Shown here: in pieces, positions 1,197 to 39,642 of the stretch
Numbering within the stretch: the stretch's first letter is position 1
Layout of the letters: the number at the start of each line of letters is the position of its first letter
Origin: Bacteroidota bacterium
GTDB taxonomy: Bacteria; Bacteroidota; Bacteroidia; Chitinophagales; JADIYW01
DNA: 64,000 nt
NCBI GenBank assembly: GCA_016705125.1
Contig: JADIYW010000025.1
Location: forward strand, 6,722 to 70,721
Reading direction: 5' to 3'
The notes under the pieces: generated by a model
Seen by the model: the letters and a program-made list of their open reading frames with translations, nothing else
What the model was told of the DNA's origin: nothing
Database searches by the model: none
Made by a program: the position numbers and the translations under genes

Positions 1197-3092
1197 TTAT
1201 TTGGAATAAAATTTTTCTAACCAAATTTCAAAGCATAATAATGCCCAAATTGTATGTGTATGGTCAATTCCAGGTTTATTTTGAAGGTGCTCAAACCATA
1301 CTTTTTTTATATAATCCATATTAAACCACCCGAACTTATTTAGGTTTCCTTCAAAAATATGTGCTTCTGTATATTTTTTTAAATCTGTTCGAAGCCATTG
1401 GTGCACTGGAATACCGAATCCGCGTTTGGTTTGAGAAAAGATATGTGGATTGAAATGTTTCTCTGCAAGTTTTTTTAGTAAGTATTTATTTTGGTTGTCT
1501 TTAAATTTAAAATCATTAGGAATATTAAAAGCCAACTCTGCCAATTTATAATCGAGTAATGGCGATCGAACTTCTAATGAATTTTTCATGGAAGCACGGT
1601 CTACTTTTACCAAATAATCGTTTAACAAACGTGTATTTAAAGAAGCAGCCAACAATGTTGTTGTATAATCCTCGCTTTTGTTGTTTTTCCAAATACCACT
1701 TAAATAATTTTCGGTGAAATTATTTCTTTCATTTTTGAAATCTTTATTAAAAAGTAAATCTAATTGATTAGGATGAATTCCAATTTCTCGATATAGTTTT
1801 AGAAAATCATTTGTATTATGATAAGTTTCTAAAGAACCAAGATTTTCTTTCCTATTATTTGAAAAACGAAATGCAAGCTTATCTACTAAGGTAGCCATTT
1901 TTCTAACACTTGTATTCGGATACTTTTGTATGTATTTATCTGTACGATAGGCGATGCCATAATCATCATAACCGCCAAACAATTCATCGCCTCCATCGCC
2001 TGAAAGTGCAACTGTTACATTTCCCCTAAGTGCTTTAGAACAATAATAAGTTGGAATCATGCTCGAATCGGCAAATGGTTCTCCGTAATATTCAACAAGA
2101 TCTGGCAATGTATGAATGATATCTGATTCCAAAATTATTTCGTGGTGGTCGGTATCATAACGCTGCGCTACTAGCTTGGCTTCAGGTAGTTCGTTGTATT
2201 TTTGGTACGACAATCCTATGGAAAATGTCTTTATTCTTTCTGTAGAATGTTGGGCGAGCAATGAAACCACCAAACCTGAATCAACACCGCCCGATAGAAA
2301 ACAACCTATCGGAACATCAGAAATGGTTCTTTTTGTAATCGCATTTATCAACTGATTTTCAACCATTTCTATAGTTTCTTCAATTGAATGCGACCAATTT
2401 TTACTGGGTTGAAGCGTCCAATATTTTTCTTTAAGCAATACTTTGTTTGTATTTAGGTCTATTTCCCAAAATGTAGCAGGTTCTATTTGGCAGATTTCTT
2501 TCCAAATCGTTTTGGGTTGTGGCGACGATATTTCACTGAAATAGTATTCCAAAGATTCAAAATCCAAGTTCAATTCCTTCTTTCTTATCGCCCAAATTGC
2601 CCTTATTTCGGAAGCAAATACTATTTCATCATTGGATTGCAAAACATAAAATGGTTTTTTGCCAAATCTATCTCGGGCAAAAAAGACTTTGTTTTTTATT
2701 TTATCAAAAATGGCAAATGCAAACATTCCATCTATGTGTTGTAGCATTTTTTGTATACCCCATATTTTGTACCCCCAACAAATCACTTCAGTATCGGAAT
2801 GAGTATTGAAAATTGCGCCTTCTTTTTCTAGCAATTTTCTCAGCTCGAGAAAGTTATAAATCTCGCCATTAAAGCTTATCCAAATTTCGCCATCAAGTAT
2901 AGAAAATGGTTGATTGGAAGATGGATTTAAATCAATAATTGCAAGTCGACGATGGCAAAACCCAACTCTATTTCCAATAAAAGTACCAAAAGCATCGGGC
3001 CCACGCTCTTGCATGGTTTGGTGCATAGTAGTAAGTTCATCCTGCTCAATAGGCTGACTACTAAATTTGATTATACCACCAATTCCGCACAT
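1197..3092 (-). CDS. asnB: asparagine synthase (glutamine-hydrolysing)-family amidotransferase, glycan-locus paralogue
   Basis: 631 aa. N-terminal MCGIGG with the class-II (Ntn) glutamine amidotransferase Cys2. PP-loop SGGVDSG in the synthetase domain. ATG confirmed at 3092-3090. Confidence 0.85.
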   Translation of the reverse strand: MCGIGGIIKFSSQPIEQDELTTMHQTMQERGPDAFGTFIGNRVGFCHRRLAIIDLNPSSNQPFSILDGEIWISFNGEIYNFLELRKLLEKEGAIFNTHSDTEVICWGYKIWGIQKMLQHIDGMFAFAIFDKIKNKVFFARDRFGKKPFYVLQSNDEIVFASEIRAIWAIRKKELNLDFESLEYYFSEISSPQPKTIWKEICQIEPATFWEIDLNTNKVLLKEKYWTLQPSKNWSHSIEETIEMVENQLINAITKRTISDVPIGCFLSGGVDSGLVVSLLAQHSTERIKTFSIGLSYQKYNELPEAKLVAQRYDTDHHEIILESDIIHTLPDLVEYYGEPFADSSMIPTYYCSKALRGNVTVALSGDGGDELFGGYDDYGIAYRTDKYIQKYPNTSVRKMATLVDKLAFRFSNNRKENLGSLETYHNTNDFLKLYREIGIHPNQLDLLFNKDFKNERNNFTENYLSGIWKNNKSEDYTTTLLAASLNTRLLNDYLVKVDRASMKNSLEVRSPLLDYKLAELAFNIPNDFKFKDNQNKYLLKKLAEKHFNPHIFSQTKRGFGIPVHQWLRTDLKKYTEAHIFEGNLNKFGWFNMDYIKKVWFEHLQNKPGIDHTHTIWALLCFEIWLEKFYSK

Positions 3093-3098
3093 GATGTT

Positions 3099-3740
3099 TT
3101 AAAAAATAATACGGATTAATTCAAATGCTTCAGCATATTTTTCAGAAATCTGAGCGCCTCTAACACGAGCTAGTCCAAAAATAAATTCTCTATCTATATA
3201 TGTTCTAAATTTTTGTGTTAAATATTTATCTAATGCATTCCATTTTTTTGCTACGTTCTTTTCTTCTACCTTAAAAAAGGCGGTAGTGGAAAATTCGGTT
3301 GTATCCCATGGTAAATCATACCCAAAGCAAGTAAAATGTTTAAATGCCCTTAAGCCTTCCTCATAAATAGTTTTATGATCTTGATGGAGTGCATTTGAAC
3401 AAGGCATAAATATAATATCAGGCTTAATTTTATTTCTCAATTGAATTAAGTCCTCTAAAATCTCTTGTCGGTGTGCGGGGAATTTGCGGACAGGGTAATT
3501 TTTAATGAAAATATTATCTTCTGGAATTCCTAATTCGGCGGTAGCAGCTCTGAATTCTTGAGCCAAAACATCCTTTGGGTAACCAACTGGAACAGAATCT
3601 TCACAAATGGAAAACGCTACCTCGTATACTTTATTGTTGTTTTCAATTAGCTTCGAAATTATAGCTCCGCAACCTAATTCACCATCATCAGTATGTGGCG
3701 ATAATATTAATACTCGTTGGTTAATTACTTCTAATTTCAT
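3099..3740 (-). CDS. PIG-L/LmbE family N-acetyl-sugar deacetylase
   Basis: 213 aa. N-terminal ILSPHTDDGELGCG motif (the PIG-L SPHxDD signature) and a downstream HQDH. Confidence 0.75.
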   Translation of the reverse strand: MKLEVINQRVLILSPHTDDGELGCGAIISKLIENNNKVYEVAFSICEDSVPVGYPKDVLAQEFRAATAELGIPEDNIFIKNYPVRKFPAHRQEILEDLIQLRNKIKPDIIFMPCSNALHQDHKTIYEEGLRAFKHFTCFGYDLPWDTTEFSTTAFFKVEEKNVAKKWNALDKYLTQKFRTYIDREFIFGLARVRGAQISEKYAEAFELIRIIF

Positions 3741-3755
3741 TATTATACAAGTCGG

Positions 3756-4826
3756 TTATAAATTATTTATTAATATTTCAACTATTTTCTCGGATGCTTT
3801 ACCGTCACCTAAACATTTTGAAATATAGTTTGGTATTGTTATATTATGATATGCAGCTATTATATTTTCCTTACTTGGTCCAGCTTGCTGATTCCAACCT
3901 TCATTTATGGTTTCAACCCATTCGGTTTGCAAATCTAGCAGTATTCCTGGTACTTCATGGAAATATGCTTCTTTGGTTACACCTCCAGAATCTGTCAATA
4001 CGAATTTAGCATAATGAATTAAGGTTTGCGTGTCAATATAACCAAGTGGTTTTGTAACAATAATATTTGGCTTATCTATATAATGTTTGAAGTTATAGGT
4101 TTCAATTGCTTTTAAAGTTCTTGGATGGATTGGAAATATTATTGTTTCTTTTATTTCTGAAAGGCTTGATAATATTTGTTCTAAGTTTTCCTTTAAATCA
4201 GTATTGTTTGCTCTATGGCAAGTTAGTAAAACATAGTCCTTCTTTTTTATTCCATTTGTAATAAATGGATTGTTATTGTTCAATATTTTCTCCCAATTGA
4301 GCAGGATAATATCAATCATTACATCTCCAATATTATATACTCCTTCGGTAATACCCATTGATTTTAAAATATCAATTGCTGTAGGAGTTGGACAGAAATA
4401 AAAATCAGAAAGTATATCTGTTATTAATTTATTCGATTCTTCGGGTATATATTTATTAAATTCCCGCAGTCCAGCTTCAACATGTCCTAGCTTAATTTTA
4501 TTTTTTACTGCAGCAATTGCAGCTGCAGAAGTAGAATTTGTATCGCCAAATACAATAACACAATCTGGCTTTTCTTTAATAAATATTTCTTCAAGCTTAA
4601 TCAACATTGTGCCAATTTGATAGCCAGCTGGGCCGGATCCAACCTCAAGATTATAATCAACATCTGGAATTTCTAATTCATCAAAAAATGATTTGGACAT
4701 TTCATAATCGTAATGTTGACCAGTATGAATAATTATTTCTTTAAAGTGCGGCCTTAGAGCTTTCGAAAGTGCTGCTAATTTTATAAATTGTGGTCTTGCT
4801 CCAACAACTGTTATTACTTTTTTCAT
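3756..4826 (-). CDS. UDP-N-acetylglucosamine 2-epimerase family (WecB/WbpI-like)
   Basis: 356 aa. MKKVITVVGARPQFIKLA N-terminus and HVEAGLR motif. ATGA overlap with the downstream gene. Confidence 0.8.
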   Translation of the reverse strand: MKKVITVVGARPQFIKLAALSKALRPHFKEIIIHTGQHYDYEMSKSFFDELEIPDVDYNLEVGSGPAGYQIGTMLIKLEEIFIKEKPDCVIVFGDTNSTSAAAIAAVKNKIKLGHVEAGLREFNKYIPEESNKLITDILSDFYFCPTPTAIDILKSMGITEGVYNIGDVMIDIILLNWEKILNNNNPFITNGIKKKDYVLLTCHRANNTDLKENLEQILSSLSEIKETIIFPIHPRTLKAIETYNFKHYIDKPNIIVTKPLGYIDTQTLIHYAKFVLTDSGGVTKEAYFHEVPGILLDLQTEWVETINEGWNQQAGPSKENIIAAYHNITIPNYISKCLGDGKASEKIVEILINNL

Positions 4827-5518
4827 CCATTAATATTTAGCATTTCTTTTATCTCCACAATTGAAATATTCATTAAAACGTCCAAAATAGACAAATTAGG
4901 TAAAAAATCACCATTTATTTGTTGGTATGGATTCGATTGATAATCTGAATAAATTAGTTCAATCATATTTTGATTATACAATTCAGGGTCATTATATTTT
5001 TTTGCACCATGTCCAGAAAGGTATTTATTTCCATTTAAATGTTTGCAAATATTAATGTTTTGAGCATTACTTGTTCCAAAGTCTTTCTCAAAACCTGAAG
5101 TCACAAAAATTTTGGTTTTAATTTCTAATTTAGCAATAACCCAATTAATAATCTCAATGTTTAATTGTGCAATATTTTCGTATTTTTTTTTCAAAATAAT
5201 TTCAAATTCGGGATAAATTATTTTAAAATTTGGCGCTTTTAGATATGAATTCTTTATTTGATTTAGGTGTTTATTGACCCATTTATGACTATAATCAATG
5301 GCTATTTCATTGTAGTGTTGGTATGCGCCTTCAGAAAGTTTTACAGGAACTGATAAAAGAATTTCTTCCCCATTTATGCCTTTAATTTTATTTCTATTGG
5401 CCACCGTTCCTTTTACATATTGTACAGTGTCCAAAATAACAAATTTATCTGAGTTGGCTATTTTATAAAAATAACCAAGCCATGGCATATAATTAGGTTG
5501 GTGAATCGAGACAATCAT
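4823..5518 (-). CDS. WbqC-family protein (glycan-locus associated, function unknown)
   Basis: 231 aa. MIVSIHQPNYMPWLGYFYKI...FVILDTVQY is the typical WbqC-like N-terminus. Confidence 0.7.
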   Translation of the reverse strand: MIVSIHQPNYMPWLGYFYKIANSDKFVILDTVQYVKGTVANRNKIKGINGEEILLSVPVKLSEGAYQHYNEIAIDYSHKWVNKHLNQIKNSYLKAPNFKIIYPEFEIILKKKYENIAQLNIEIINWVIAKLEIKTKIFVTSGFEKDFGTSNAQNINICKHLNGNKYLSGHGAKKYNDPELYNQNMIELIYSDYQSNPYQQINGDFLPNLSILDVLMNISIVEIKEMLNING

Positions 5519-6058
5519 CTAAGATGCAATAATAAATGGCTGATAATTATTTTTTTGAACTGACATCCACACATAGCTTTGATATTTTCCATCTTTATAC
5601 ACCATGTCTTTCAGCAATCCATTTTGGACAAAACCAAATTTTTTGAAAAAATGAATAGATCTTTCATTTTCTTCTAAAACGGTAATGTAAATCGTTTGCA
5701 TATTCAATTGGAAAAACAAATAATCCATTGTCAATTTCAGGGCTTCTTTTCCATGTATTTTTCCCCAATAATCTTTATCTCCAATGGTAACACCGACCTC
5801 ACAGTTCTTGTTTATATGGTCTATTTTCATAATGCCAACCATGCCAATAGGTGTATTATTTGCCTTATCAACAATAATCAACTTTTTTTTATTTGGTTGA
5901 TTAATTTGAGCATCAAACCATTTTTTTTGTTCCAAAATGTTATTTGGAAAACGACTCTCAAAATATTGGGCTATTTCATTATCGAAATTCCAAATACTAA
6001 TTTTATTAATATCTGTTTCTTCGATAGCACGCAATAAAATATACTTACCTGAAAACAT
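5519..6058 (-). CDS. GNAT family N-acetyltransferase
   Basis: 179 aa. RimJ/RimL-like layout with a typical GNAT C-terminal core (...NERSIHFFKKFGFVQNG). Confidence 0.7.
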   Translation of the reverse strand: MFSGKYILLRAIEETDINKISIWNFDNEIAQYFESRFPNNILEQKKWFDAQINQPNKKKLIIVDKANNTPIGMVGIMKIDHINKNCEVGVTIGDKDYWGKIHGKEALKLTMDYLFFQLNMQTIYITVLEENERSIHFFKKFGFVQNGLLKDMVYKDGKYQSYVWMSVQKNNYQPFIIAS

Positions 6059-6114: not shown

Positions 6115-6574
6115 CTATTCAATTATTAGCTTTTTAGTAAGTGAATTTTTGTCGGTATTTGTAACTATAAAATATACTCCAGCTGCTAAATTGCTTTTTT
6201 GAACCATTATTTCAACATTAGAAAGGTCATTTTGGGTTTCTTCAAAAAGATTTTTGACCAATTTACCAGTAATATCAACCAATTGAACGGACAAATATTT
6301 AGAATCTATATCAGTAATTTTTATATTAAACTGTCCATAAATACAAAGTAAAAACACCTGCTGTTGAAGTGTTGTTTGAAGGGTCAAGCATACAATCCAT
6401 CATTCGTAATGCAGAATTTGAGCTAGGTTTTATTTGTTTCAACTCTGATAAATCATTGATGTAGTTTTCACTTATTCCATGATTTCCGCAAACTGGGATA
6501 TTATTTTGTTGAGCATTGGCATTAAAGCAACTTATTACAATAAGTGCAAAGCATAGGAATTTAGTTCTAAACAT
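6115..6574 (-). pseudogene. small secreted protein with T9SS C-terminal sorting domain, split by a frameshift
   Basis: ORF 6326-6574 has a signal peptide (MFRTKFLCFALIVISCFNANAQ). ORF 6115-6387 ends in a Por-type CTD (IYGQFNIKI...VQLVDITGKLV...AGVYFIVTN...KKLIIE). The frames switch around the A5 run at 6350-6354. Confidence 0.5.
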
Positions 6575-7583: not shown

Positions 7584-8777
7584 TTAATCTCCTTTATTAA
7601 TAATTCTAATAATCTCTTTTGATTTTGTATTACATGAAAGATAGTTCTCTCCAATTTTTCTTATTTCTTTTGATTTTTCAGTAGAATCATTTCCATTATA
7701 AAATTGTTTTAAAAAAAGCACTATCTTATCGAAGTCAATTGTTTCTTCATTTTCGGATATTTTCAAATAAAATGGTTCAAATTCTGGATTGTTGGAAATA
7801 TCTATTTCATAATGCGAAAAAATAAAAGGGAAGCCCATTCCTATATATTCTCTAATTTTTAAGGTAGCACCTTCCTTGCTTTTCCACCGATGAAAGCCCA
7901 GGCTACCTATACCTAAATGGCATTTATTCAATATTTCATGGTATTTCTCCCCTGTCATCTTTGGATAAAAAATTACCCTAGCATTTGGTTTGTCTCCTTT
8001 GTACATTCTTTTAGTTTTAGCAGTAAAATTGCCCACTAAATGTAAAGTTAAATAAACTTGTCCATTATAGGCTTTTAAGCCTTTTATAAGTCTGTCAGTT
8101 CCATAAGCTGAATAGGCTGTTGTGCAAGCCATTATTAAATGAAACCCCTCCGATGCGGAAGGATGAATTGCTCTTAATTTTGTTCTTTCAAAATTATAAC
8201 TATTTCCAACAGTATGACAATTGTATTTTTCCTTTATTCTATAGGTTTGATATGCATTTATTTCGTCAGTAACTGCAAAACCACCTTTGGCAAGTGCAAT
8301 AAGTTGGTTTCCATATTTCTTTTCTTTGTTAATTCGGTTATAAATATCTTTAAGATTGGAAAAGTCAAAGGTTTTAAAATAATAGAGATAATCTCTAAAT
8401 TTAATCGCTTTTAACACATAATAAATTTCAATCAACTCTTTTGAATGGTGTTCGAGCCATATTCTCTTTGGGTATTTTTCAAAAAACTCAACTATTGGTT
8501 TAGAGGGTTGTGGGTATCTAAAAATAATTTCGTCCTCTGGTTTCAATTTTTCTTTCAAAAAATCTTCTACTTTTAATAAGCCTTCTGCTTCAGTTTTATA
8601 AAAAATGTGAACCGAATTTTCAAACTGCTTATTATCTACTTTATCTGAAAGGAATAAAAAAATTCCGTAACCACTTATTTCTGTATTTTTAAAACCATTT
8701 ACAAAGTCTTCAGACCTTCTGATTATACTATAAGCAGTTTCATTTTGTATAATAACTATATAAAATAAGGTTCTCAT
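7584..8777 (-). CDS. putative GT-B glycosyltransferase
   Basis: 397 aa. C-terminal KEGATLKIREYIGMGFPFI fits the EX7E motif of retaining GT-B enzymes. ATGA overlap with the upstream gene. No other recognisable motifs. Confidence 0.4.
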   Translation of the reverse strand: MRTLFYIVIIQNETAYSIIRRSEDFVNGFKNTEISGYGIFLFLSDKVDNKQFENSVHIFYKTEAEGLLKVEDFLKEKLKPEDEIIFRYPQPSKPIVEFFEKYPKRIWLEHHSKELIEIYYVLKAIKFRDYLYYFKTFDFSNLKDIYNRINKEKKYGNQLIALAKGGFAVTDEINAYQTYRIKEKYNCHTVGNSYNFERTKLRAIHPSASEGFHLIMACTTAYSAYGTDRLIKGLKAYNGQVYLTLHLVGNFTAKTKRMYKGDKPNARVIFYPKMTGEKYHEILNKCHLGIGSLGFHRWKSKEGATLKIREYIGMGFPFIFSHYEIDISNNPEFEPFYLKISENEETIDFDKIVLFLKQFYNGNDSTEKSKEIRKIGENYLSCNTKSKEIIRIINKGD

Positions 8778-9946
8778 CAGTTGTTTTGTATAGGCTTAGT
8801 TAATACACCAACAAATCGCAATATTCTAACAGGAATATATAGAACTGATTTAAGTAAAAACATTAAAATCCTTATTTTAAGTTGTTGATTAGTTTTATAA
8901 TTTTCATGAGCTATTGGCTTATTAGATAAAAAACCTGTCATAAATTCTTCGTCGAAATCGAGTTTTTTCATTACATATTCTCTATCTTCTAACTGCATCG
9001 ACATTGGATATGATTCTTTTTCCATTTCTTTAACAGCTTCGGCTTTAGTTATCTGATGCGACATAACAAGATTAGAAAGATGCATTTTTCGTTTATCAAT
9101 ATTCGCCTTATTGGGCAAAATATATCCTTGATAAAATCGAGTAAAAATGGATTCAAAATGTTTCCAACCATAATCTGTCCAACCAATTTTATCAATTATC
9201 GTTTGTTTTACTTCAGCTTTATTGTAAGGAATATAATTCAATAAAATAATTTGTTGTATGCCAAAAACAACTTCGTAAATATATTTTCTATAAATGCTCA
9301 ACTTTGGTAAAGTTCTTATTTTTATAGAACCAAATTGCTGATGAATATCTTTTAAGTTTTCATAATCATCTTTTATTTTACACGTCCATCCAACAGGATT
9401 TATGGCTTCCGTTTCTAGATTATGTCCACTTAATATGTATTTAATTTTTTTCTTATAAGCAATTTCATACAAAGCAGCTCCTATAAGTTGGTCGGTTGGC
9501 ATCTCTAAATCCAATACGTTTGATTTAAAGTAAGACCGTTGAAGATCTTTAAACTCTTCCCAATTTAGTACATAAGTGATCAAATCATAATTAAGAATTT
9601 TGGTAATGTTTTCGATGTTTTTAACAGCATGCTCCGTATTCCATCCATTATCAAAGTGTACCAAAAGAGGTCTCAAATTCCATTGCTTTGCCATATAGCA
9701 AAGATAAGAACTATCTACTCCACCACTTAAACCAATAATGCAATCATATTCATTTTTTTTTGAGTTCTTTTTTATTTCATCGAGAATTGATAATAGTTTT
9801 TCTTTTTTCCTATCTATTGGAACTTTTAAAACACTTTCTTCTAAAGTTTCAAAATAAACACAATAATTACACTTACCTTCTTTATCAAAAGTTATAGTTG
9901 GTGCTGTTGTATCTAAAAGGCATTTTGTACATTGAACTAATTCCAT
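8777..9946 (-). CDS. N-acetyl sugar amidotransferase (WbuX/WbpG family, PP-loop ATPase)
   Basis: 389 aa. N-terminal Cys-ribbon CTKCLLDTT...EGKCNYC followed by the PP-loop GLSGGVDSSY. Confidence 0.8.
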   Translation of the reverse strand: MELVQCTKCLLDTTAPTITFDKEGKCNYCVYFETLEESVLKVPIDRKKEKLLSILDEIKKNSKKNEYDCIIGLSGGVDSSYLCYMAKQWNLRPLLVHFDNGWNTEHAVKNIENITKILNYDLITYVLNWEEFKDLQRSYFKSNVLDLEMPTDQLIGAALYEIAYKKKIKYILSGHNLETEAINPVGWTCKIKDDYENLKDIHQQFGSIKIRTLPKLSIYRKYIYEVVFGIQQIILLNYIPYNKAEVKQTIIDKIGWTDYGWKHFESIFTRFYQGYILPNKANIDKRKMHLSNLVMSHQITKAEAVKEMEKESYPMSMQLEDREYVMKKLDFDEEFMTGFLSNKPIAHENYKTNQQLKIRILMFLLKSVLYIPVRILRFVGVLTKPIQNN

Positions 9947-9956
9947 ATTGAATAAT

Positions 9957-11236
9957 TTAGTCTTCTTCTTCAGGTGTTAAACTTAAAAAATAGGAGCGAA
10001 TAAAATAATATATATATACTAGGGAATAATTTAGGGTAAATAAAAACAACATTCCTTTTGATGTTTCAAATATTAAATAACCAATATATAATGAACCTAA
10101 ACTAGATAGAATTAAATATACATGAATTAGAAAATCTTCAAATAGCTTCTTGCGGATAAAATAAACATAGGTTAAGGGTCCAACTATAAAATTTAAATAG
10201 TAATAAAATCCAAGGATTTGTGCAAATTCGCCGGCCAAAAACCATTTTTCGCCAAAAACAAATGCAAATAATTGTGGTCCAAATAATAATAATGAAATAA
10301 ATGGCACCAAACCTATAAGGAAAGACCCTATAGCCGTTTTTATAAATAACTGTTTACAATTGTCATTTTTATGTATTTCTTCAATTGCTTTTCTCGAAAA
10401 AATTTGTGATATTGCATTGCTTCCTATCGTTAATGGGATGCCTAAAAATCGTCTAGCATAACCTATGTTTCCCACCTCATAAACTGTAATGGTTTTGGAT
10501 AAGAACAAGGTCGGCAATTCATTTGATGCTGTTTGCATTAAGTCGTTAGGCAATGAAATAAGAAAAATTTCTTTTCAATCTTTAATATTTCTTTTATTCT
10601 TTTAAAAGATGCCAATCTTTTAAATTTCCAATATGGCTTTAAGTAAAATAATAAAGAAATTACTGTTGTCAAAAAAGTACTAAAAAAATAGCCGCCAAGC
10701 AACCCTCTATAATCAGGATGTACATTCAAAATGTGAGGCGCAATAACTGCATATAAAATTTGAAATCCTATGCTCGATAAGGAATAGATTATATTAAGAG
10801 AAGAAATCGTTTTATAGTTAGCATTTTTTTGATACCAAGACCCCATTGAAGAATTGAATCCATTTAAAAAAACTACTACTGGAATTAAATATATAAATTT
10901 TGAGAAAATTATATTTTCACCACTCACAAAACTAATTATTTTTGGAAAAAAAACCAACAGAAAAAATAACGCAATCGACACTATTAAATTGATACTATTA
11001 GATAATAAAATTGCATTAACCGTATTAGTTACTTTACGCTGAATTAATATACTATGATTATAATGGGAATTAAAAAATGCATTTAATATATTTATTAGTG
11101 CCATAAATACTGCCACTATTCCATAATCAATAGGATGGTAAATTCGTGAAAGTACTGGCGCCAAAAACAAAGGCACAAATGTGGCTATAGAACCACCAAA
11201 GAAAAGGGTAAAAAAATTCTTCCCCTCTCCAACCAT
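9957..11236 (-). pseudogene. wzx: Wzx-type polysaccharide flippase, split in two by a frameshift
   Basis: ORFs 10538-11236 (232 aa) and 9957-10553 (198 aa, apparent TTG start) are both polytopic. Together they reach the ~430 aa typical of Wzx. The downstream frame is open back to 10574, and the switch lies at the A5 run 10563-10567. Confidence 0.65.
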
Positions 11237-11291: not shown

Positions 11292-12146
11292 TTAATAAGT
11301 AATGATTGGATTGCAATAATTAACAATTTCCAAAAATTTTCGTTTATCATTTATATCAAATTGATACAAAGCATTTCTATCAAAATATTTACTATTTAAA
11401 ATAGCTGTTGACTTTTTATTTTCTTCTGTTAAAACGATTAATTCAAATTTGCCTTTTTCCAATCCAAATATTTTGGAAATAGAGGTGTCGGGAAATGCTT
11501 CCCCATCTTTTGTAATAACAATAGCACTATCTGGCAATAAATACTTCAAATTAAATGTATTTAATCTCTGATGGTTTGATTTGTTTTTAAAGTACACATC
11601 ATTTACTGGGTCATGGATTTCCCAATTTCCATTATCTGGATTAAAGACTTCTAAATAAACATAAGAAGAAACGATTTTTGAATTATTTTCAAAGAACATT
11701 GCTGACATAATACGTGTCTTATATTTAAAATATTGACACAATCGTTGCATAACCAAAATGGTAGGATAAGAAGTTAACCCCGGTTTTTTATTTAGTTTTT
11801 TATTTGAATATAAAAACATATCCTCAATTACTTTTGAAGTATTAAAAGTATATGAATATAGTTGGGTTGCTTGGTTCGAACAATTATTATGCACCCACGA
11901 TCTTAAAGAATCAATTCTATTGGTTTCATTCTTGAAATTAATCGCTGCAAAGTATTCATAAATAGCTGGATTTTCGTCTTTTGCCTTTTTCTGAATGCTG
12001 TAATCTGCTTTTTCGCGCAATAAGTTTTTTAATTTTTCAGCCTTTTCGGGTTCTACCAAAAAAGATATATTAGCAAACAAACTAATGGCTAAGAAGAACA
12101 CCAGAATTGAAAAAAATATTAATCTTTGCAATTTACTATTACTCAT
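11292..12146 (-). CDS. membrane-anchored transglutaminase-like fold protein, paralogue B (catalytic Cys and His replaced)
   Basis: 284 aa with an N-terminal TM. Aligns with the 14117-14932 product (WEIHDPVNDVYFK vs WEIQDPLNDVYYK; RLNT). It has TSYPT and SSYVYLEV where the paralogue has SCGPR and GSHSFLEI. Confidence 0.45.
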   Translation of the reverse strand: MSNSKLQRLIFFSILVFFLAISLFANISFLVEPEKAEKLKNLLREKADYSIQKKAKDENPAIYEYFAAINFKNETNRIDSLRSWVHNNCSNQATQLYSYTFNTSKVIEDMFLYSNKKLNKKPGLTSYPTILVMQRLCQYFKYKTRIMSAMFFENNSKIVSSYVYLEVFNPDNGNWEIHDPVNDVYFKNKSNHQRLNTFNLKYLLPDSAIVITKDGEAFPDTSISKIFGLEKGKFELIVLTEENKKSTAILNSKYFDRNALYQFDINDKRKFLEIVNYCNPIITY

Positions 12147-12147
12147 C

Positions 12148-14105
12148 TTATTTGTTGTTTTTTATTAAAATGTGTGCATTCAAATAAGGCCAAAATAAAG
12201 AACAATCTACATCAGACCAAGTTTTATTCTTTGCTTTTGATAATGCCCATTCACTTAATTTTTTCCCTTCAAAAATAGTTGATTGTTGAAATTCAAGTGA
12301 ATTTATTTCATCTTGCAGAAATTCAGACATCGGTCCATTAAACCACTCTACCATAGGCGAACCAAGTCCAATTTTTAATTTCCTATTTCTAATAATTTCT
12401 GGCATTATTCCCTTCATCGAATCTCTTAAAATTCTCTTCGTAAACCCTCCACCAATTTTGCTTTGCTGCGGAATAGAAAAAATAAATGACACCAACCTAT
12501 AATCCATAAATGGCATTCTTATTTCAATACCATGTTGCATTGAGCCTCTATCAAAATCTCTTAAATTATAAGGCAATTCGTCATAATGGAAATGATTATA
12601 AATAATAGATTCTTTCGTTTCTCTGTTTTTCTCCCTATAAAAATCATCGCTAATATATGGAATAGATCGAATCTCTTGCTCTTTTAAAAAATCATGCGAA
12701 TTTATAGGCGAAAGTCCATTGACCTTTTTTGGAGGAAAAAGGTGATGTTTTACGGCTCTTAATTTTTTGTAAACAGGATTTTGTCTATTTTTTGAATTAA
12801 AAAGCGCTTCAATTGTAGCCTGTTTTTCCTTTCTTTCTTCAGGAAAAAGGATGTCTAAATAGGTTTCCTTTAATGCCATTGCAGATGGGTCGTTCTGCTC
12901 AATAGCCATTCTCATTGCCGAAAAAACGGAGTTTCGATATCCATACATCATCTCATCCACTCCATGTCCATCCATGGATACGATAATTTTGTCGGCACGC
13001 ATGCCCTTATAAACATCGGTAAGACAAATAATTGGACCGCCCGAAATGCCATCAAATAATATAGTTCCTTTTTCGATATCCGATATCAGATTTGTATAAT
13101 CGGGTATCAGATACTTGGCGTTTCCATTTGTAAATTTAATTACCTCCTCCGCATAATGTCGTTCATCCACTTTCGTATTTGGAAAGGTGGCCACAAATGC
13201 CTTTTGCCAATTTGATGGAAGTCGTTCTTTTTGAATCGAATTATCATTCATTAAATGGTGAAGCATACAATACACTGCCGATGAGTCCACTCCTCCACTT
13301 AGTGCGGAGGCTAAGGGAACATCAGACCGCATTCGGATACGACAAGCATCTTCAAAAATTTCTTTGAAATAGGCTACTTGATCTTCATAATTTGTAGGAA
13401 ATGTAACTAAATTATCGAGCGTACTCCACCATTTAATCTGAACAGGTTTCTGTCCTTTTTTATTTCAATATAATGCCCTGGCAATAATTGTGTGACATCT
13501 TTAAAAATAGTATACCCAAATGCCTCAATAGATGAAAAAGAAAGAATCGAACGAGATAAAAGTTGTGTGTCAAATTCTCTTTTAAAATTACTTAAATACT
13601 TAAAGGCTATCGTTTCGGATGCAAATGCAAAAAAATCATTCTGCTTATAAATATAATGTAGTGGCTTTACTCCAAATCTGTCTCGGGAAAGAAATAATTT
13701 CTTTTTAAAATTATCCCATATTGCAAATGCCCACATGCCATTGAATTTTTTTAGGCAGTCTTTACCCCAAAAATCGTATGCTGCTAATATCACTTCTGTA
13801 TCCGACTCAGATTTAAAATTATATCCTTCTGAAAGCAGTATTTTTTTTAATTCTATAAAATTATATATCTCTCCATTATAGGTAATGGAATAGCGATTGT
13901 TTAAATATTCAAGTGGTTGCTTTCCATTTTCCGAAAGGTCTAAAATAGAAAGTCTGCGGTGCCCCAACCCAAGTGTTTCATTATCATATAGTGTATAACC
14001 ACTCCCATCAGGGCCGCGATGTCTTAATGAATCTGTGAATTTTTCTAATTCATTTAATTCAACTAATCTGTTATTAAGATTCCAAACGCCTGCAATTCCA
14101 CACAT
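12148..14105 (-). pseudogene. asparagine synthase-family amidotransferase, split by a frameshift
   Basis: 13407-14105 encodes the GATase domain (MCGIAG...). 12148-13332 encodes the synthetase domain (SALSGGVDSSAV). The second frame is open upstream and reads QKPVQIKWWSTLDNLVTFPTNYEDQVAYFKEIFEDACRIRMRSDVP. One-base slippage in the T6/A6 run at 13456-13461 restores ...YIEIKKGQKPVQIKWW.... Confidence 0.75.
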
Positions 14106-14116
14106 CCTAATTCCCT

Positions 14117-14932
14117 TTAGTACACAATAATGTTTTTATAATTTTTGAAATAACCCTCCAAAGTGGTTCCATCAATTGGGTAAACTTTTTCTTTTGTATA
14201 ATATTTAGAATTTAAAAGCACAATAAAATCTCCTTCCTTTGGTTTTATGGAAACAATTTTAAAACTTTCCGTTAATTCGATAAAGTTATATGGTAATACT
14301 TTTACACCACAATTAAGACTATCTCTACATGGTAAAAAATCCAATTTTTCCATCATTGTAATTTGTAAAGTATTTAGCCTGTTTCCTTCACTGTCTTTAT
14401 AATATACATCATTTAATGGGTCTTGAATTTCCCATCTTTTTGTGTCTTCATTATAAATCTCTAAAAATGAATGACTCCCAATCATATTCGGATTATTTTG
14501 AAAGAAAATGGAAACAAACCTAGTTTCAAAGCCTAACATATAAAGCAACTCTTGCATAGCTAAAGCCCTTGGCCCACATGACATTGGCGGACTATTACTT
14601 TTTTTTATATAAGATTGATAAATATCATGTAATGTTATTTTTGGATCAAACGAATCTATATAATTTGTATCGCCGGTTCCAAAAGTATTTTCAAAAATCC
14701 AATGTCTAATATAATCTAATTCGGCAGTTTTCGAAGTGAATTTCTTGTTTTTAAAAAAAGCCAATACTTCTGGATTTGCTTTTAAAGATTTTTCCATCTC
14801 TGTTCGATGTGTTATGGTCTTAATTTTTTCTTTCAAAGCACTTACCCTAGTCGCATCTTGAAGAAAATAAAGATTAAGAAACGCGCTTAATCCTAGTATT
14901 ATTACCACTATAAATAAAAATAGTTTTCTCAA
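14117..14932 (-). CDS. membrane-anchored transglutaminase-like (papain-fold) protein, paralogue A with Cys-His-Asp pattern
   Basis: 271 aa with an N-terminal TM. SCGPRA..(35 aa)..GSHSFLEIY..(17 aa)..WEIQDP matches the order and spacing of the transglutaminase-core Cys/His/Asp. The only in-frame start is TTG at 14932, 6 nt after the upstream stop. Confidence 0.5.
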   Translation of the reverse strand: MRKLFLFIVVIILGLSAFLNLYFLQDATRVSALKEKIKTITHRTEMEKSLKANPEVLAFFKNKKFTSKTAELDYIRHWIFENTFGTGDTNYIDSFDPKITLHDIYQSYIKKSNSPPMSCGPRALAMQELLYMLGFETRFVSIFFQNNPNMIGSHSFLEIYNEDTKRWEIQDPLNDVYYKDSEGNRLNTLQITMMEKLDFLPCRDSLNCGVKVLPYNFIELTESFKIVSIKPKEGDFIVLLNSKYYTKEKVYPIDGTTLEGYFKNYKNIIVY

Positions 14933-14937
14933 TTTTG

Positions 14938-15882
14938 TTATTTTCTATTTGTCAAAAATGGGTGGTAATTATTTTCTAGTGGCATTATTTCAGCATGTCT
15001 GATTCCATGAACTATTTCAATTGATTTTTTTGCCTCAATTAGTCTAAATCCATTTCCATCCAGAATGTGTTGGTATGATTTTGTATGCAAATCTGTAAAA
15101 CCATCACTAAATTCTATTTCCTCTCCTTCCATTGATAAAGACCTAAATGTTCTTTTTCCTTCTGCTCTTATTTTTTCAGGAATTGTTAAGTAATCTATAC
15201 TCAAAAACCACTTTACATTTGCTTTTTCAAATCTCAAATATCCTGCTGCACTTGTTTTATTATGTAAATGTACTATATTTTCTTTTAAATCGCCAAATAC
15301 CCAACCCAACATATCATAAAAATGTACACCAATATTGGTTGCAATTCCTCCCGATTTTTGAACATCCCCTTTCCAACTCGTTTGATACCAATTTCCTCTG
15401 GAAGTTATATAGGTTAAATCTATCTCATAAATTTTGTCTTTGGGGCCATTGGCAATTCTCTGCTTTAGTTCGATAATACTTGGGTGCAACCTAAGTTGAA
15501 AAATATTATAAACATTTTTGCCAGTTTCCTTTTCTATCTCTAATAATGCATCGACATTCCATGGATTAAGTACGAGTGGTTTTTCACATATTACATCCGC
15601 ACCATGCCTCAATCCAAATCGAATATGTGAATCATGTAAATAATTGGGAGTGCAAATACTTACAAAATCTATTTTTTTTCCCTCTCTTTTTATTTTATCT
15701 ATATGCCTGTCGAACCTTTCAAACTCTGTGAAAAAATCAGCATCAGGGAAATAGCTATCTATTACCCCTACACTATCAAACTTATCTAATGCTGCCACCA
15801 AATTATTGCCTGTATCTTTTATGGCCTTCAAATGGCGTGGCGCTATAAATCCTGCTGCTCCTATTAAAGCGAAATTCTTCAT
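14938..15882 (-). CDS. Gfo/Idh/MocA family oxidoreductase (WbpB-like UDP-GlcNAcA 3-dehydrogenase)
   Basis: 314 aa. [21 protein letters not shown] Rossmann N-terminus. Sits next to the WbpD-like and WbpE-like genes. Confidence 0.7.
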   Translation of the reverse strand: MKNFALIGAAGFIAPRHLKAIKDTGNNLVAALDKFDSVGVIDSYFPDADFFTEFERFDRHIDKIKREGKKIDFVSICTPNYLHDSHIRFGLRHGADVICEKPLVLNPWNVDALLEIEKETGKNVYNIFQLRLHPSIIELKQRIANGPKDKIYEIDLTYITSRGNWYQTSWKGDVQKSGGIATNIGVHFYDMLGWVFGDLKENIVHLHNKTSAAGYLRFEKANVKWFLSIDYLTIPEKIRAEGKRTFRSLSMEGEEIEFSDGFTDLHTKSYQHILDGNGFRLIEAKKSIEIVHGIRHAEIMPLENNYHPFLTNRK

Positions 15883-16460
15883 TAATTAACTCTACTAATT
15901 TTTTGATCCAATAATATATACTCTTGATTCGTTTCTGGGCAAAATGCATGCCCCTTTTCATCAAAAATTAATTTATGCCCATATTCGCTCACCCAACCAA
16001 TTTGTCGAGCAGGATTACCAACAACTAATGCATAATCAGGAACAGGCTTTGTAATAACAGCCCCAGCGCCAATTAGTGCATACGAACCTATCGCATTTCC
16101 ACAAACAACTGTGGCATTCGCTCCAATTGAGGCTCCCTTTTTTACAAGGGTTTCTTTATATTGATCTTTTCTAATTACTGCACTCCTTGGATTACTTACA
16201 TTAGTAAAAACCATTGAGGGACCCAAAAAAACATCATCTTCACAAATCACTCCTGTATAAATAGAGACATTGTTCTGAACTTTCACGTTTTTCCCTAAAA
16301 CAACACCCGGACTTACTACGACATTTTGACCAATATTACATTTTTCACCAATAATACAGCCAGCCATTATATGACTAAAATGCCATATCTTGGTCCCTGA
16401 TCCAATTTTGCAACCTTCATCAACAATTGCGCTAGGATGGTTATAAAAATTATCCTCCAT
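15882..16460 (-). CDS. left-handed beta-helix (hexapeptide) N-acetyltransferase, WbpD/WlbB-like
   Basis: 192 aa. Repeated hexapeptide pattern ([31 protein letters not shown]...). Confidence 0.75.
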
Positions 16461-16463
16461 ATT

Positions 16464-17591
16464 TTATTTAAAAAAATCTAATACTGAGGTGCAAATATAA
16501 TCTAAAATTTCATTTGTTGTTTCTGTATGAATTGGTAATGAAATTACCCTTTCACACAAATCTATTGTGGTTTTAAAATCGCTAGGATTTATAGTATTGT
16601 CTTTAAACGCCTCTTGACTAAAAAGTGGCAATGGGTAATATATCATTGATGGAACTCCCCTCTCCGACAAATGAGTTTGAAGGGCATTTCTTTTTTCCTT
16701 TGGCAATTGAATCGTATATTGATGAAAAACATGCGTTGAATTTAAAACTCTTTTAGGCACTTGAATTTCTGATTTTATTGGTAAAACTCGATCATAAAAA
16801 TCAGCAGTCCATTGCCTCTTGGCAATATATTCATCAATATATTTCAATTTTACCTTCAAAATTGCGGCTTGCATAGTATCTAATCTTGAATTGCAACCTA
16901 CCATTGTATGGTAATATTTTTTGGCTTGTCCATGGTTGGCGATCATTCTTATTTTATGTGCAAGTTCATCGTCATTTGTCGTTAAGGCTCCACCATCTCC
17001 ATAAGCACCCAAGTTTTTTGATGGAAAAAAAGAAGTTGTACCTATATGCCCAATGGTGCCTGCTTTTTGGGTTTTTCCGTTTTTGAAAATATAATCCGCG
17101 CCAATTGCTTGTGCATTATCTTCTATTACAAATAAGCCATATTCTTTTGAAAGCTCCATAATGGATTCCATATCAGCACATTGTCCATAAAGATGCACAG
17201 GCACTATTGCTTTAGTTTTATTGGTTATTACTTTTCTTGCGTGCTCAACAGATATATTAAAGGTAAGAGGATCAACGTCCACCATTACTGGTTTAAGTTT
17301 CAAAAGCGCAATGGCCTCCGCTGTGGCCACATAAGTAAATGCTGGAACAATTACCTCGTCACCTATATTAAGGTTAAGTGCCATCAATGCAATTTGAAGT
17401 GCATCAGTTCCATTTGCACACGGAATTACATGTTTTACATTTAAATATTTCTCTAAATCGGATTGAAATTCTTTAACTAAACTTCCATTTATAAATTCTG
17501 CCGATTCAATACAATTAATTACAGCTGTGTCAATTTCTGTTTTTATTTTTTGGTATTGACCTTTTAGGTCTACCATTTGAATATCTTTCAT
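16464..17591 (-). CDS. DegT/DnrJ/EryC1/StrS family sugar aminotransferase (WbpE-like)
   Basis: 375 aa. Typical family layout, including SFFPSKNLGAYGDGG around the PLP lysine. Confidence 0.85.
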   Translation of the reverse strand: MKDIQMVDLKGQYQKIKTEIDTAVINCIESAEFINGSLVKEFQSDLEKYLNVKHVIPCANGTDALQIALMALNLNIGDEVIVPAFTYVATAEAIALLKLKPVMVDVDPLTFNISVEHARKVITNKTKAIVPVHLYGQCADMESIMELSKEYGLFVIEDNAQAIGADYIFKNGKTQKAGTIGHIGTTSFFPSKNLGAYGDGGALTTNDDELAHKIRMIANHGQAKKYYHTMVGCNSRLDTMQAAILKVKLKYIDEYIAKRQWTADFYDRVLPIKSEIQVPKRVLNSTHVFHQYTIQLPKEKRNALQTHLSERGVPSMIYYPLPLFSQEAFKDNTINPSDFKTTIDLCERVISLPIHTETTNEILDYICTSVLDFFK

Positions 17592-26905: not shown

Positions 26906-29900
26906 CTATTCTATAATAACTAATTTGCCTAAATATTTTTCTTCTCCATTTGTAATCTCTATAAAGTATAGCCCCCTTGTAACATTTTCCAAAATATAAT
27001 TTTGTATATTTTCTCCTTCAAAAGATTCAAACCTATCTTCTTTAACCACCTTTCCTGTTAAATCAAAAATCCTTAATTGGCTATTTGAATTGGATTTTGA
27101 ATTAAACTTGATGCTAAATTCAGATTTTGCAGGATTTGGTATAATAGTAATTTTTTGTGGTGTCGTATTTATATTTGAAACTGTTGGAGATTGTTTTCCA
27201 ATTTCACCACCGCCTGATTGCAAGACATCTGTTTGGAAGACAAGTCCTCTAACAGGACTTAATCCCTCTTCTCCACAATCACTGGTGATGTCTACCTTAT
27301 AAGAATAAGATTTAGAAGCATCGGAGGCATTTAAACCCCTAATGGTAACCGAATGTTGGTCGCCAGGAACTGAAGTATTGTATGCTGGACCAAAAGTTCC
27401 ATCACGTAACACTTCTCTATATTTGACATAAAATGCTTCAGGCTTGCCTACAATATCCCAATAAATTAACACTTCTGATGGGGTTCGGGCATCCTTAATA
27501 GCGATCACACCATCTGGACCATTTTTACAATCTCCCCCTTCACCACCTAATCCATTTGGAAGTGTTACAAAACCCCATTGGCTCCAATATGAAGGTGGCA
27601 TGTCCTCATTACAATATGACCTTACTGACCATTGATATTTTTTACCTGGCACACAATTATAAATTGTTGCAAAATGCCCCCAATTATAAACATAATTCCA
27701 ATCTCCATTACCGCCATCATCTGGATCAATTCTATATCTTATTTCAAATTGTGATGCAGGAGAATCCCAATTACATTTAAATGCAGTGGAAGAAATTGCT
27801 TCTTCATGAAGGTTTGTTGGTGGATATAAATTACAAAATTCATTTCGAGTCCATATTTCTTTAAAGGCAGTATAATCCCCATAACCTCCATTTCCTGATG
27901 AGCAAATTGCTCTAATCCTAAATTTATACTTTGTATTTTGTACTAAACCATCTCGTATGTGTGTGATAATATCCTCCGGGCTTGCAAAACTAATATTAAA
28001 AGTCACACTACCAAAAGTTGGAGGAAATCCATCGCCTGCTATTGCGCTATATTCTATCTCATAATCTACAGCATTTGCAACTCTTTCCCATTGTAAGGTT
28101 ACTGCATTAACTGAATTACTTTCAAGTTGAAATTTATTTATATTAGGCGTTGCACAACCTCCGGTTGTAAATTTGGGTTGTCCACTCCAATCACTTTCCC
28201 CAGTAGAACAAATTGTTTTTACTCGCCAAAAATATTCTGTTCCTAATTCCAGATTACTTAAAGTTAAAACAGATGTGGTGGGTAAAATTTCATAATAATC
28301 ATACACTCCATTTTCACCTTTTTTAATTTCCAATACCCATTTAATAGGACTCCAACTATTGCTGGTCCAATTAAGAGTGGCTCCATTTGCACTTATATTT
28401 GTTACAAACAATGCACTTGGTGCATTTAGTGTACAATCATCTTTGGTAATAAACTCTTTTTCTACACTCCATGAGCTCGTATCAGGAGCCAAACAGACCG
28501 TTTGAACAATATATTCGTATTTCTTTCCTTCACCTAATCCCGTTAAATTTAGAATATTGCCACCAATATTTGTAGTCACCCAACTACCCATAGGAGGAGA
28601 TAATTTCCTATATTTTATATTATAAGAAACTGCACCAGGAACAGGATCCCAGCTAATTGAAGCTCCACCAATAACGTTTGACATGGCATTAATTCCATCT
28701 GGTAATCTGCAACCAATAGTAGTAAAACTTGATAAGTTACTAAATTCTGATTCCCCTGAAGGACAAATTGGTTTTACTTTCCACCAATATTTTGTTTCAG
28801 GTTCTAAATTTATGGCTTGATAGAAATTAGTGCTTACAAAATAAGTTAAACCAGTTGGATTTCCATCTTTTCTGATACTTACTTCGTATTGTGTGGCTTG
28901 ACTTATGGCCGTCCACTCCAATTTAGCAGCATTTTCAGTTATATTATTAGCTATTAAACCTGCAACTGGAACTAAAGTACATGGTGTTTTGACCACAAAT
29001 GTAGCAATTGGGCTCCATAAACTTGTATCTGGCGACTGGCAAATACTCTGAATCTGAAATTCATAAGTGGCACCATTGGTTAAAAAATTAATATCCAGCG
29101 CATTGCCCGCAGTACTATTTAATATCCAATTTTGAGTACCAACCAAACGGTATCTAATTTTATAATTAATAGCCACATTAATAGTTGTCCAACTTATAGT
29201 CCCTACTCCGAGTGCATTTGAAACGCCTTTGATGTTTGTAGGCAATACGCATTCATCCCATGTTTTAAATGATTTAAAAGAATCTGTAAAATCACTCTGA
29301 CTGGTGGCGCAATTGTTTTTTACTTTCCAAAAATAGGTAGTACCAGGAGTTAATCCTGTTAATTCTAAAAATGTATTCGTAATATTCAAATTTTTAATCC
29401 AAGTACTTGAGCCAACTGGTTTGTACCACAATTCGTATGAAGTAGCACCAACTGCTGCTGTCCAGCTTAATTTGGCTTTGGTGCTTGTGATATTAGAACT
29501 CACTAAATTTGTTGGTGGGTTAAAATTACAAGGTGTTAATGTTGTAAAAGGAAAAATAGGACTAAAAGCACTTGAGTCGGGTGCACTACATTTGGCTTGT
29601 ACTTTAAAAACATAATTTGTCCCTGGCAACAATCCAGTTAATTTGGTTGAATCATTTGCTACATATTTCGTGGTCCAGATATTGCTACTTGCAAGTTTAT
29701 ATTTAACTATAAAAAGCCCTACATCGCCTCCACCAGTTTTCCAAACCAAGGTAGCTTTATTTGTGCCCAAATTTTCAACTCCCAAATTTTTTGGTTCTTT
29801 ACAAATCGGATCAGTAATAAACAAAGTACTCGGACTACTAAAATCACTCGCAGATCCATCCATACAAATACTCTTTACTTTCCATAAATATTCTGTATTT

Positions 29901-32587: not shown

Positions 32588-32621
32588 CTCTTTTCGTTTA
32601 ATTTTGAATTGGTCAGTTTTC

Positions 32622-39323: not shown

Positions 39324-39591
39324 AATATTTCTTTTTATTAAAATATAATTTGTTAGAATTACGAAAAGAGGGTATAAATTATTTTAAAAAAGTTTAAAAG
39401 CTAATTATCATAAATTAACTATTTTACTAATTCAAATTTAAACTAATGGTAAAGCTTATTTTATTACAATTTTTCGCATTTGTCAATAATAAATATTCAA
39501 TTATTGGAGATTTTTAGGCTTTTAAAAATTTTAAAATGCTGACTATAAACACATTATCACATTACATTTTTTTAACAAAAAAGTACTTTTT

Positions 39592-39618
39592 AAAAAAAAA
39601 GGGTAGCTAATGCCACCC
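39592..39618 (-). terminator. putative terminator after giant gene P3
   Basis: Minus strand reads GGGTGGC-atta-GCTACCC (one mismatch) followed by T9. It starts 25 nt after the stop at 39643. Confidence 0.5.
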
Positions 39619-39642
39619 TTTTATCAAACAAAATGATTTACC

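Follow-up and report, generated by a model that had tools for sequence, protein, structure and literature searches.

We analyzed two paralogous genes, TGL-A and TGL-B, which flank an AsnB-type glutamine-dependent amidotransferase gene inside a glycan locus of a Bacteroidota bacterium (contig JADIYW010000025.1 of assembly GCA_016705125.1, positions 6,722 to 70,721; this whole stretch of 64,000 nucleotides is called the window below). With high confidence, both genes encode proteins of transglutaminase-like fold, which form a pair of one active and one catalytically dead member. By analogy with the enzyme WbmE of Bordetella bronchiseptica, we further propose that TGL-A removes, outside the cytoplasm, the amide group of a uronamide made by AsnB, a reading whose chances we judge to be close to balanced.

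The paired paralogues TGL-A and TGL-B

TGL-A (14117..14932, minus strand) is read from a TTG start codon and encodes 271 residues, with a predicted signal anchor at the N-terminus and with a transglutaminase-like domain in which the triad Cys119/His154/Asp171 is intact. On the minus strand, the nucleophile Cys119 is encoded by TGT at 14576..14578, His154 by CAT at 14471-14473 and Asp171 by GAC at 14420-14422. These residues lie in the motifs SCGPRA (at residue 118), GSHSFLEIY (at 152) and WEIQDP (at 167), with spacings of 35 between Cys119 and His154 and of 17 between His154 and Asp171. TGL-B (11292..12146, minus strand) encodes a paralogue of 284 residues with the fold of TGL-A, in which the aligned motifs read TSYPT, SSYVYLEV and WEIHDP, and the triad positions are occupied by Ser126 (11769-11771), Tyr162 (TAT, 11661..11663, at the catalytic His position) and Asp179 (11610-11612). 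The two proteins align over 257 residues with 28% identity and a BLASTP E-value of 2e-33, far above chance, and the paralogy is therefore real. The intergenic gaps are 11 bp from TGL-A to the AsnB-type gene and 1 bp from the latter to TGL-B. Both N-termini carry two Lys or Arg residues followed by about 20 hydrophobic residues. Overall, these results bear out the original prediction, which had described two clear paralogues with an N-terminal transmembrane segment, the order and spacing of a Cys-His-Asp triad in copy A, and the replacement of Cys by Ser and of His by Tyr, with retention of Asp, in copy B.

Direct profile scans gave no Pfam or NCBIfam match for either protein, and a profile of six sequences retrieved only noise from the PDB sequences, such as Kelch-like 'EVYNPDTxxW' look-alikes. 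A word-indexed search returned four homologues of TGL-A and three of TGL-B, to which an alignment query added little; these close homologues are all labelled 'hypothetical protein' and come from metagenome-assembled genomes (MAGs) of activated-sludge Bacteroidota. The wider family surfaced only in an exhaustive hidden Markov model (HMM) search of 1.84 billion representatives, not in the word-indexed search; 405 clusters passed E ≤ 1e-3, and 225 passed E ≤ 1e-10. Family members are about 270 residues long, and the conservation counts given here come from an alignment of 132 sampled members. In this alignment, C119, R122, R138, H154, E158, W167, D171 and P172 (TGL-A numbering) are near-invariant: Cys and His each occur 129 times among the 132 members and Asp 131 times, and the sole members without Cys and His are TGL-B and its two orthologues (3/132). 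TGL-A and all its relatives keep the Cys-His-Asp residues that had been proposed as catalytic. One member, P0027 (679 residues), carries a fused C-terminal portion of about 400 residues with a CxxxCxxC motif (CNARCITC), which suggests a radical-SAM domain.

The structural models led to the same superfamily. The AlphaFold model of TGL-B, based on a 76-sequence alignment, reached a predicted local distance difference test (pLDDT) score of 89.9 and a predicted template modelling (pTM) score of 0.85; the pLDDT of the TGL-A model was 77.5. Compared with the PDB using Foldseek, TGL-A gave a best E-value of 3.9e-4 and TGL-B one of 9.5e-5, with six matches at E ≤ 1e-3 for TGL-B and XPC chains on top. 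For both models, almost all the matches were transglutaminase-superfamily chains, namely XPC/Rad4, 3isr (a putative cysteine protease of Cytophaga), the pseudomurein endoisopeptidases PeiP/PeiW, TG2/TG3/FXIII, PNGase, TglA and vasohibin, while arylamine N-acetyltransferase-fold chains were also present for TGL-A. The Foldseek probabilities were 0.9-1.0 for both models, with modest E-values. Among the 132 members, 50 matched PF01841 (Transglut_core) below threshold at E ≤ 1 (best E 9.7e-6) and seven weakly matched PF13471 (Transglut_core3). The 132-sequence profile aligned with the core of Pseudomonas aeruginosa TgpA (PDB 6g49) with Cys, His and Asp in register, at a marginal HMM E-value of 0.39, and hhalign gave a probability of 94.5% for the family against the TgpA core fragment. 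PF06035 (BTLCP) was not among the 25 commonest of the 86 families matched over the 132 members, and TGL-A and TGL-B do not match it either. Taken together, these results place the TGL family in the transglutaminase-like superfamily, an assignment that is well supported and good at superfamily level only. The transglutaminase/papain-like core proposed for the pair is sustained by both models, which match mostly transglutaminase-superfamily chains and not an unrelated fold, and by the TgpA alignment; the expected Pfam link was found below threshold in relatives and not in TGL-A or TGL-B themselves.

Several observations characterize TGL-B as a conserved pseudoenzyme. Besides the changes at the Cys and His positions, TGL-B carries Thr at the position of Arg122, and the same pattern is seen in its orthologues (Ser or Thr, with Thr in place of Ser126, at the Cys position, Tyr at the His position, and Thr or Ser at the Arg122 position). 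These orthologues retain R138, E158, W167, D171 and P172, together with an N-terminal ID..R.W...N motif. Identity among them is 61-73%, comparable to the 53-75% found among the TGL-A orthologues, and TGL-B is therefore under purifying selection. The fold and most of the family-invariant residues are thus kept in TGL-B, and the nucleophile, the base and the conserved Arg are gone. Beyond its own clade, the best matches of TGL-B are found in the TGL-A clade, and the sequences fit an origin of TGL-B by duplication of TGL-A followed by catalytic loss. TGL-B probably binds the same glycan or TGL-A itself, and would thereby modulate the extent or the site of amide removal.

An N-terminal hydrophobic segment was present in 107/132 members, and the net-charge rule for the flanking residues predicted an N-in/C-out orientation for 70 members and an N-out orientation for 18. 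Several members resemble cleavable signal peptides at their N-terminus, and P0010, which seemingly has no anchor, gains one if an upstream start codon is taken. On these charge rules, the catalytic domain is most likely periplasmic. AsnB requires cytoplasmic ATP and glutamine. With AsnB in the cytoplasm and the TGL domains most likely exported, the two proteins would therefore act in sequence, on opposite sides of the membrane.

Linkage to AsnB-type genes and the surrounding glycan locus

The gene between TGL-A and TGL-B (12148..14105, minus strand), called mid-type AsnB hereafter, encodes an AsnB-type glutamine-dependent amidotransferase with the N-terminus MCGIAG and with GATase_6/7 domains. 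The original prediction, which had both copies bracket this gene, was right about its type and position, but it is broken here and does not form one intact open reading frame (ORF) in the window. A second AsnB-type amidotransferase of the window, AsnB_2 (1197..3092, minus strand), is WbpS/eps_aminotran_1-like and 29% identical to mid-type AsnB.

A locus search with 15 TGL sequences found 4 loci in genomes and 27 in metagenomes, the latter mostly on short contigs. In five divergent lineages, an AsnB-type gene directly follows a TGL gene on the same strand: the window clade, itself made up of three lineages with 53-75% identity, and P0008, P0009, P0010 and P0044, each with a single active TGL gene 30-34% identical to TGL-A. 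P0025 also adjoins an AsnB gene, in divergent orientation, and in locus L012 the unit is reduced to TGL, AsnB and a Wzx-type flippase, with unrelated genes around. The AsnB genes linked to TGL fall into two subfamilies, with about 29% identity between them. Among the mid-type members identity is 51-55%, those of the WbpS/AsnB_2-like type show 47-53% identity to AsnB_2 of the window, and TGL genes adjoin both, mid-type and WbpS/AsnB_2-like (L042 6988-8862; L031 3-512). All the TGL-linked AsnB proteins, of either subfamily, keep the glutaminase N-terminus MCGI, so that the link is with amidotransferase chemistry and not with one inherited cassette. The coupling to an ATP-dependent amidotransferase that had been suggested therefore holds as far as gene adjacency, which recurs in distant lineages, but a joint enzyme complex is improbable for proteins that are most likely on opposite sides of the membrane.

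AsnB coupling does not extend to the whole family, and we rejected that reading: many members lie beside cinA/recA, pnp, tig or similar housekeeping genes. The TGL gene directly follows cinA in two unrelated lineages (L007 6339-9883; L043 284-2206) and directly precedes recA in L007; for part of the family, the cinA neighbourhood is a conserved setting outside glycan loci. Some other members are in glycan loci without a visible AsnB gene. Several TGL-containing glycan loci carry MBOAT genes (L042 1541-5877, L013 12748-13496, L044 7901-9337) or FkbH-like genes together with acyl-carrier (PP-binding) genes (L011 4009-6431, L042 1541-5877), which hints at further extracytoplasmic acyl modification of the same polymers.

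In the window, the genes for a WbpB-like oxidoreductase, a WbpD-like acetyltransferase and a WbpE-like aminotransferase (14938..17591, minus strand) lie directly upstream of TGL-A. A Wzx-type flippase gene (9957..11236, minus strand), read as two ORFs here, lies directly downstream of TGL-B, and is followed by a gene for a WbuX-family N-acetyl sugar amidotransferase (8777..9946, minus strand; TIGR03573, 262.6 bits, above the cut-off). The full order on the minus strand is WbpE-like, WbpD-like, WbpB-like, TGL-A, mid-type AsnB, TGL-B, Wzx and WbuX, then a glycosyltransferase-like protein, a TylF-like methyltransferase, a GNAT acetyltransferase (5519-6058), a WbqC-like protein (4823-5518), WecB, a PIG-L de-N-acetylase (3099-3740), AsnB_2 and a GT4 glycosyltransferase. 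The block from WbpE through Wzx, then WbuX and AsnB_2, is kept in two further lineages, with 75% and 53% TGL-A identity. From this gene content, the locus is predicted to encode a glycan containing a 2,3-diacetamido-2,3-dideoxy-uronic acid with amide or amidino groups. The amide-linked substituent on a uronic acid that had been offered as a possible target fits a locus with WbpB, WbpD, WbpE, WbuX and two AsnB genes.

Three further features of the window were recorded. The PIG-L, WbqC-like and GNAT trio resembles the VimE/VimA steps of the Wbp/Vim linking-sugar pathway of Porphyromonas gingivalis, which consist of a deacetylation followed by an aminoacylation. At 6115-6574, two short ORFs overlap in different frames and jointly resemble a small secreted protein; they form a third broken gene of the locus, whose product carries a signal at its N-terminus and, at the C-terminus, a tail ...LAAGVYFIVTNTDKNSLTKKLIIE that looks, by eye only, like a sorting domain for type IX secretion (T9SS). 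Finally, three consecutive giant ORFs of 1907, 2233 and 1847 residues occupy 26906-45186 on the minus strand.

Proposed reaction and competing explanations

In the reaction that we propose, cytoplasmic AsnB would use ATP and glutamine to amidate a 2,3-diacetamido-uronic acid precursor at its C-6 carboxylate, giving a uronamide. The lipid-linked unit would then be flipped over the membrane by Wzx. TGL-A would be located at the outer face of the inner membrane, where its Cys119 would attack the carboxamide, with release of ammonia and formation of a thioester. Hydrolysis of this thioester by water would amount to a deamidation, as in WbmE, and would restore the negative charge, so that the charge of the polymer would be edited; a less likely outcome is that an amine resolves the thioester, which would be a transamidation. 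TGL-B would modulate or target the deamidation step.

Several points weigh against this proposal. Neither TGL-A nor TGL-B has a significant sequence match in the PDB, and the Foldseek TM-scores are about 0.3, low values because the superposition covers a core of about 130 residues only. The periplasmic location of the catalytic domain is predicted from charge rules. In the wider family, most members are found in housekeeping settings without AsnB (for example cinA-TGL-recA, pnp, tig), so that AsnB coupling is a trait of a sub-clade. The likeness of TGL-A to WbmE is drawn from a published description and not from a sequence alignment, and sequence alone does not separate deamidation from transamidation. 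Finally, the frameshifts in AsnB and Wzx may mean that the module is inactive in this genome, or may be assembly errors.

The transamidation outcome defines a first alternative, in which TGL-A would be a glycan transamidase that takes the AsnB-made uronamide as acyl donor and joins the sugar carboxyl to a periplasmic amine without ATP. Conceivable acceptors are de-N-acetylated sugars, lipid head groups, protein lysines and peptidoglycan, and the product would be a cross-linked or anchored polymer. Transamidation is the defining chemistry of the transglutaminase superfamily, and the periplasmic domain of TgpA is active as a transglutaminase in vitro (PMC3507681). In addition, the recurrent TGL-AsnB(-Wzx) unit is sensible if the amide is installed for later use, and the PIG-L de-N-acetylase of the window could supply a free sugar amine. 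However, WbmE, the sole characterised glycan-acting homologue, is a deamidase, and a PIG-L gene was not seen in the examined stretch of the related loci; we consider this alternative unlikely. A broader version, to which we give an equally small chance, is that the uronamide serves as a handle made in the cytoplasm: AsnB would spend ATP to neutralise and 'pre-activate' the carboxyl, Wzx would flip the unit, and the anchored active/dead pair would use the carboxamide in the ATP-free periplasm. The outcome would be either a patterned unmasking of charge or amide cross-links to an amine acceptor, made by a 'glycan transglutaminase' with the dead paralogue as the substrate- or acceptor-binding subunit, and this too seems doubtful to us.

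TGL-A may also act on a protein of assembly or export. It would then be a cysteine protease, or a deamidase of proteins, and control capsule or O-antigen production as has been proposed for HvyA of Caulobacter crescentus, and the adjacency of AsnB would reflect operon packaging. HvyA is a precedent for a periplasmic protein of a capsule locus with a needed triad (PMC4241560), and many members of the TGL family lie outside glycan loci. Nevertheless, TGL genes stand beside two different AsnB subfamilies in several lineages, the minimal TGL-AsnB-Wzx unit suggests amide chemistry, and the BTLCP family PF06035 is absent from the matches listed for the 132 members. A protein substrate is therefore improbable in our view.

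The state of the module in this genome bears on another explanation. Mid-type AsnB is interrupted after position 13454 (site 13453-13455), where a GGG run lacks one G, and is read as one ORF with the GATase domain (13407-14105) and another with the Asn_synthase domain (12148-13332); it is intact, with 652 residues, in two metagenome contigs of other assemblies that are 99.3% identical (L014, L041). The Wzx gene changes frame near a T run at approximately 10560-10575 and encodes an intact protein of 440-441 residues in relatives; a second frame change is possible near the start of the gene. The 1-bp deletion in AsnB and the split of Wzx, together with the broken small ORF with the T9SS-like tail, would be expected from a module in decay, with AsnB and Wzx as pseudogenes and TGL-A and TGL-B as leftovers. 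Against this, the TGL-A and TGL-B ORFs are both intact, as is AsnB in the near-identical contigs from the two other assemblies, and just one indel was found over the 13.3 kb comparable with these contigs. Since a short G run holds the AsnB indel and a T run is close to the break in Wzx, and the cluster members, truncated copies included, come from activated-sludge MAGs, an assembly error is at least as likely as true decay, and we think that the decay of the module has only a slim chance of being the explanation.

Least tenable is a lasso-peptide-like B/C pair, in which a transglutaminase-like cysteine protease and an AsnB-like lactam cyclase would mature a small peptide: lasso clusters do combine these two superfamilies, PF13471 is weakly matched by the seven members mentioned above, and mid-type AsnB scores 297 bits for the lasso cyclase model NF033535, against 200 bits for AsnB_2, but these 297 bits are far under the cut-off of 525, TIGR01536 fits better with 372 bits and passes its cut-off of 267, and the neighbours are sugar-nucleotide and glycosyltransferase genes (with no systematic search for a precursor ORF made). 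Furthermore, the linked AsnB proteins keep MCGI, with its glutaminase Cys, and the GATase domains, and are therefore makers of primary amides, and the TGL proteins bear predicted N-terminal export anchors, whereas lasso B proteins are cytoplasmic and carry an RRE domain. We therefore rejected this reading as highly implausible.

To our knowledge, WbmE is the single enzyme known to edit the charge of a surface polysaccharide after export. The TGL family suggests that such editing is much wider, with at least 405 clusters, all annotated as hypothetical, one sub-clade of which is tied to AsnB and in places to a flippase, and it would add a conserved enzyme/pseudoenzyme pair to this process. It would also give a testable explanation for uronamides that are both made and removed, or used for ATP-independent amide bonds beyond the cytoplasm. 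With the analysis, these 'hypothetical proteins' can be annotated, and partial amidation or amide cross-links become worth seeking in the glycans of activated-sludge Bacteroidota.

Comparison with known systems

Among the systems described so far, TGL-A and TGL-B most likely resemble WbmE of B. bronchiseptica, as judged by analogy. WbmE is a periplasmic enzyme of the transglutaminase superfamily, with the triad C165/H201/D216 and a signal peptide cleaved at residue 30/31, which acts on the finished O chain and turns its L-GalNAc3NAcAN uronamides into uronic acids, and the WbmE locus encodes three AsnB-type glutamine-dependent amidotransferases, wbmC, wbmI and wbmZ (King et al. 2009, PMC2615507). 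The spacing of its triad is similar to that of TGL-A (C119/H154/D171), both proteins have an N-terminal hydrophobic segment, which in TGL-A is a predicted export signal, and both loci combine a 2,3-diacetamido-2,3-dideoxy-uronic acid polymer with AsnB-type amidotransferases. The substrate proposed for TGL-A is likewise a C-6 uronamide. In contrast, WbmE is soluble in the periplasm after cleavage of its signal peptide, whereas TGL-A and TGL-B apparently stay anchored, and WbmE was described as a smart00460/pfam01841 match, whereas the TGL pair reaches no Pfam match. WbmE belongs to an O-antigen pathway of the ABC-transporter type and the window locus has a Wzx flippase; neither a dead paralogue nor a direct TGL-AsnB adjacency was reported for WbmE. 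The mature N-terminus of WbmE (ATPAATDATA) had no match among the 155 proteins compared. In the literature, only PMC2615507 was found on uronamide deamidases, and nothing past WbmE, HvyA and TgpA was found on transglutaminase-like genes with O-antigen, asparagine synthase or pseudoenzymes. Since WbmE and its three AsnB-type genes were already known, the claim that such a module is undescribed for O-antigen or capsule pathways cannot be maintained; the original prediction was right about the fold, about the pairing of an active with an inactive copy and about amide chemistry, and overstated the novelty.

HvyA is a periplasmic transglutaminase-like BTLCP from a capsule locus of C. crescentus, which blocks capsulation and whose substrate is unknown; its triad C192/H226/D241 is needed for function, which is lost in the C192S and H226Y alleles (PMC4241560). 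It is exported, as is predicted for the TGL proteins, and is similar to them in being about 270 residues long and encoded in a glycan-type locus, with a transglutaminase-like Cys-His-Asp triad, and its two non-functional alleles are the substitutions that occur naturally in TGL-B. HvyA differs from TGL-A in its sequence family (PF06035 is not among the matches listed for the TGL family), in its inhibition of capsulation and in having no AsnB link. Rad4/XPC, like TGL-B, keeps the transglutaminase fold without the catalytic Cys and His, but it serves in the recognition of DNA damage, with neither a membrane anchor nor an enzyme paralogue as partner. TgpA of P. aeruginosa has a periplasmic transglutaminase domain with activity in vitro (PMC3507681). 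As is likely for the TGL proteins, this transglutaminase-like domain is periplasmic and belongs to an inner-membrane protein, and its core aligns with the triad in register. In contrast, TgpA has 688 residues, six transmembrane helices and a DUF3488 domain, is essential, shows protein transglutaminase activity in vitro, and is encoded outside a glycan locus.

In Bacteroidota, the porR(wbpE)-porS(wzx)-wbpS cluster of P. gingivalis makes a glucuronamide linking sugar (PMC7468200), and the word 'transglutaminase' is absent from the text of that paper. Systems of the WbpS/WbqG/PGN_1234 type are close to the window in combining, in a Bacteroidota cluster, Wbp-pathway genes, Wzx and an AsnB-type enzyme that forms a glucuronamide derived from a 2,3-diamino uronic acid. 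The AsnB between TGL-A and TGL-B differs from them as a divergent mid-type, only 29% identical to the WbpS-like AsnB_2 of its own locus. Overall, what is new here in comparison with these systems is an unannotated sequence family, the tight pairing of TGL and AsnB genes, the apparent membrane retention next to a Wzx pathway, and a conserved dead paralogue that brackets AsnB together with its active counterpart.

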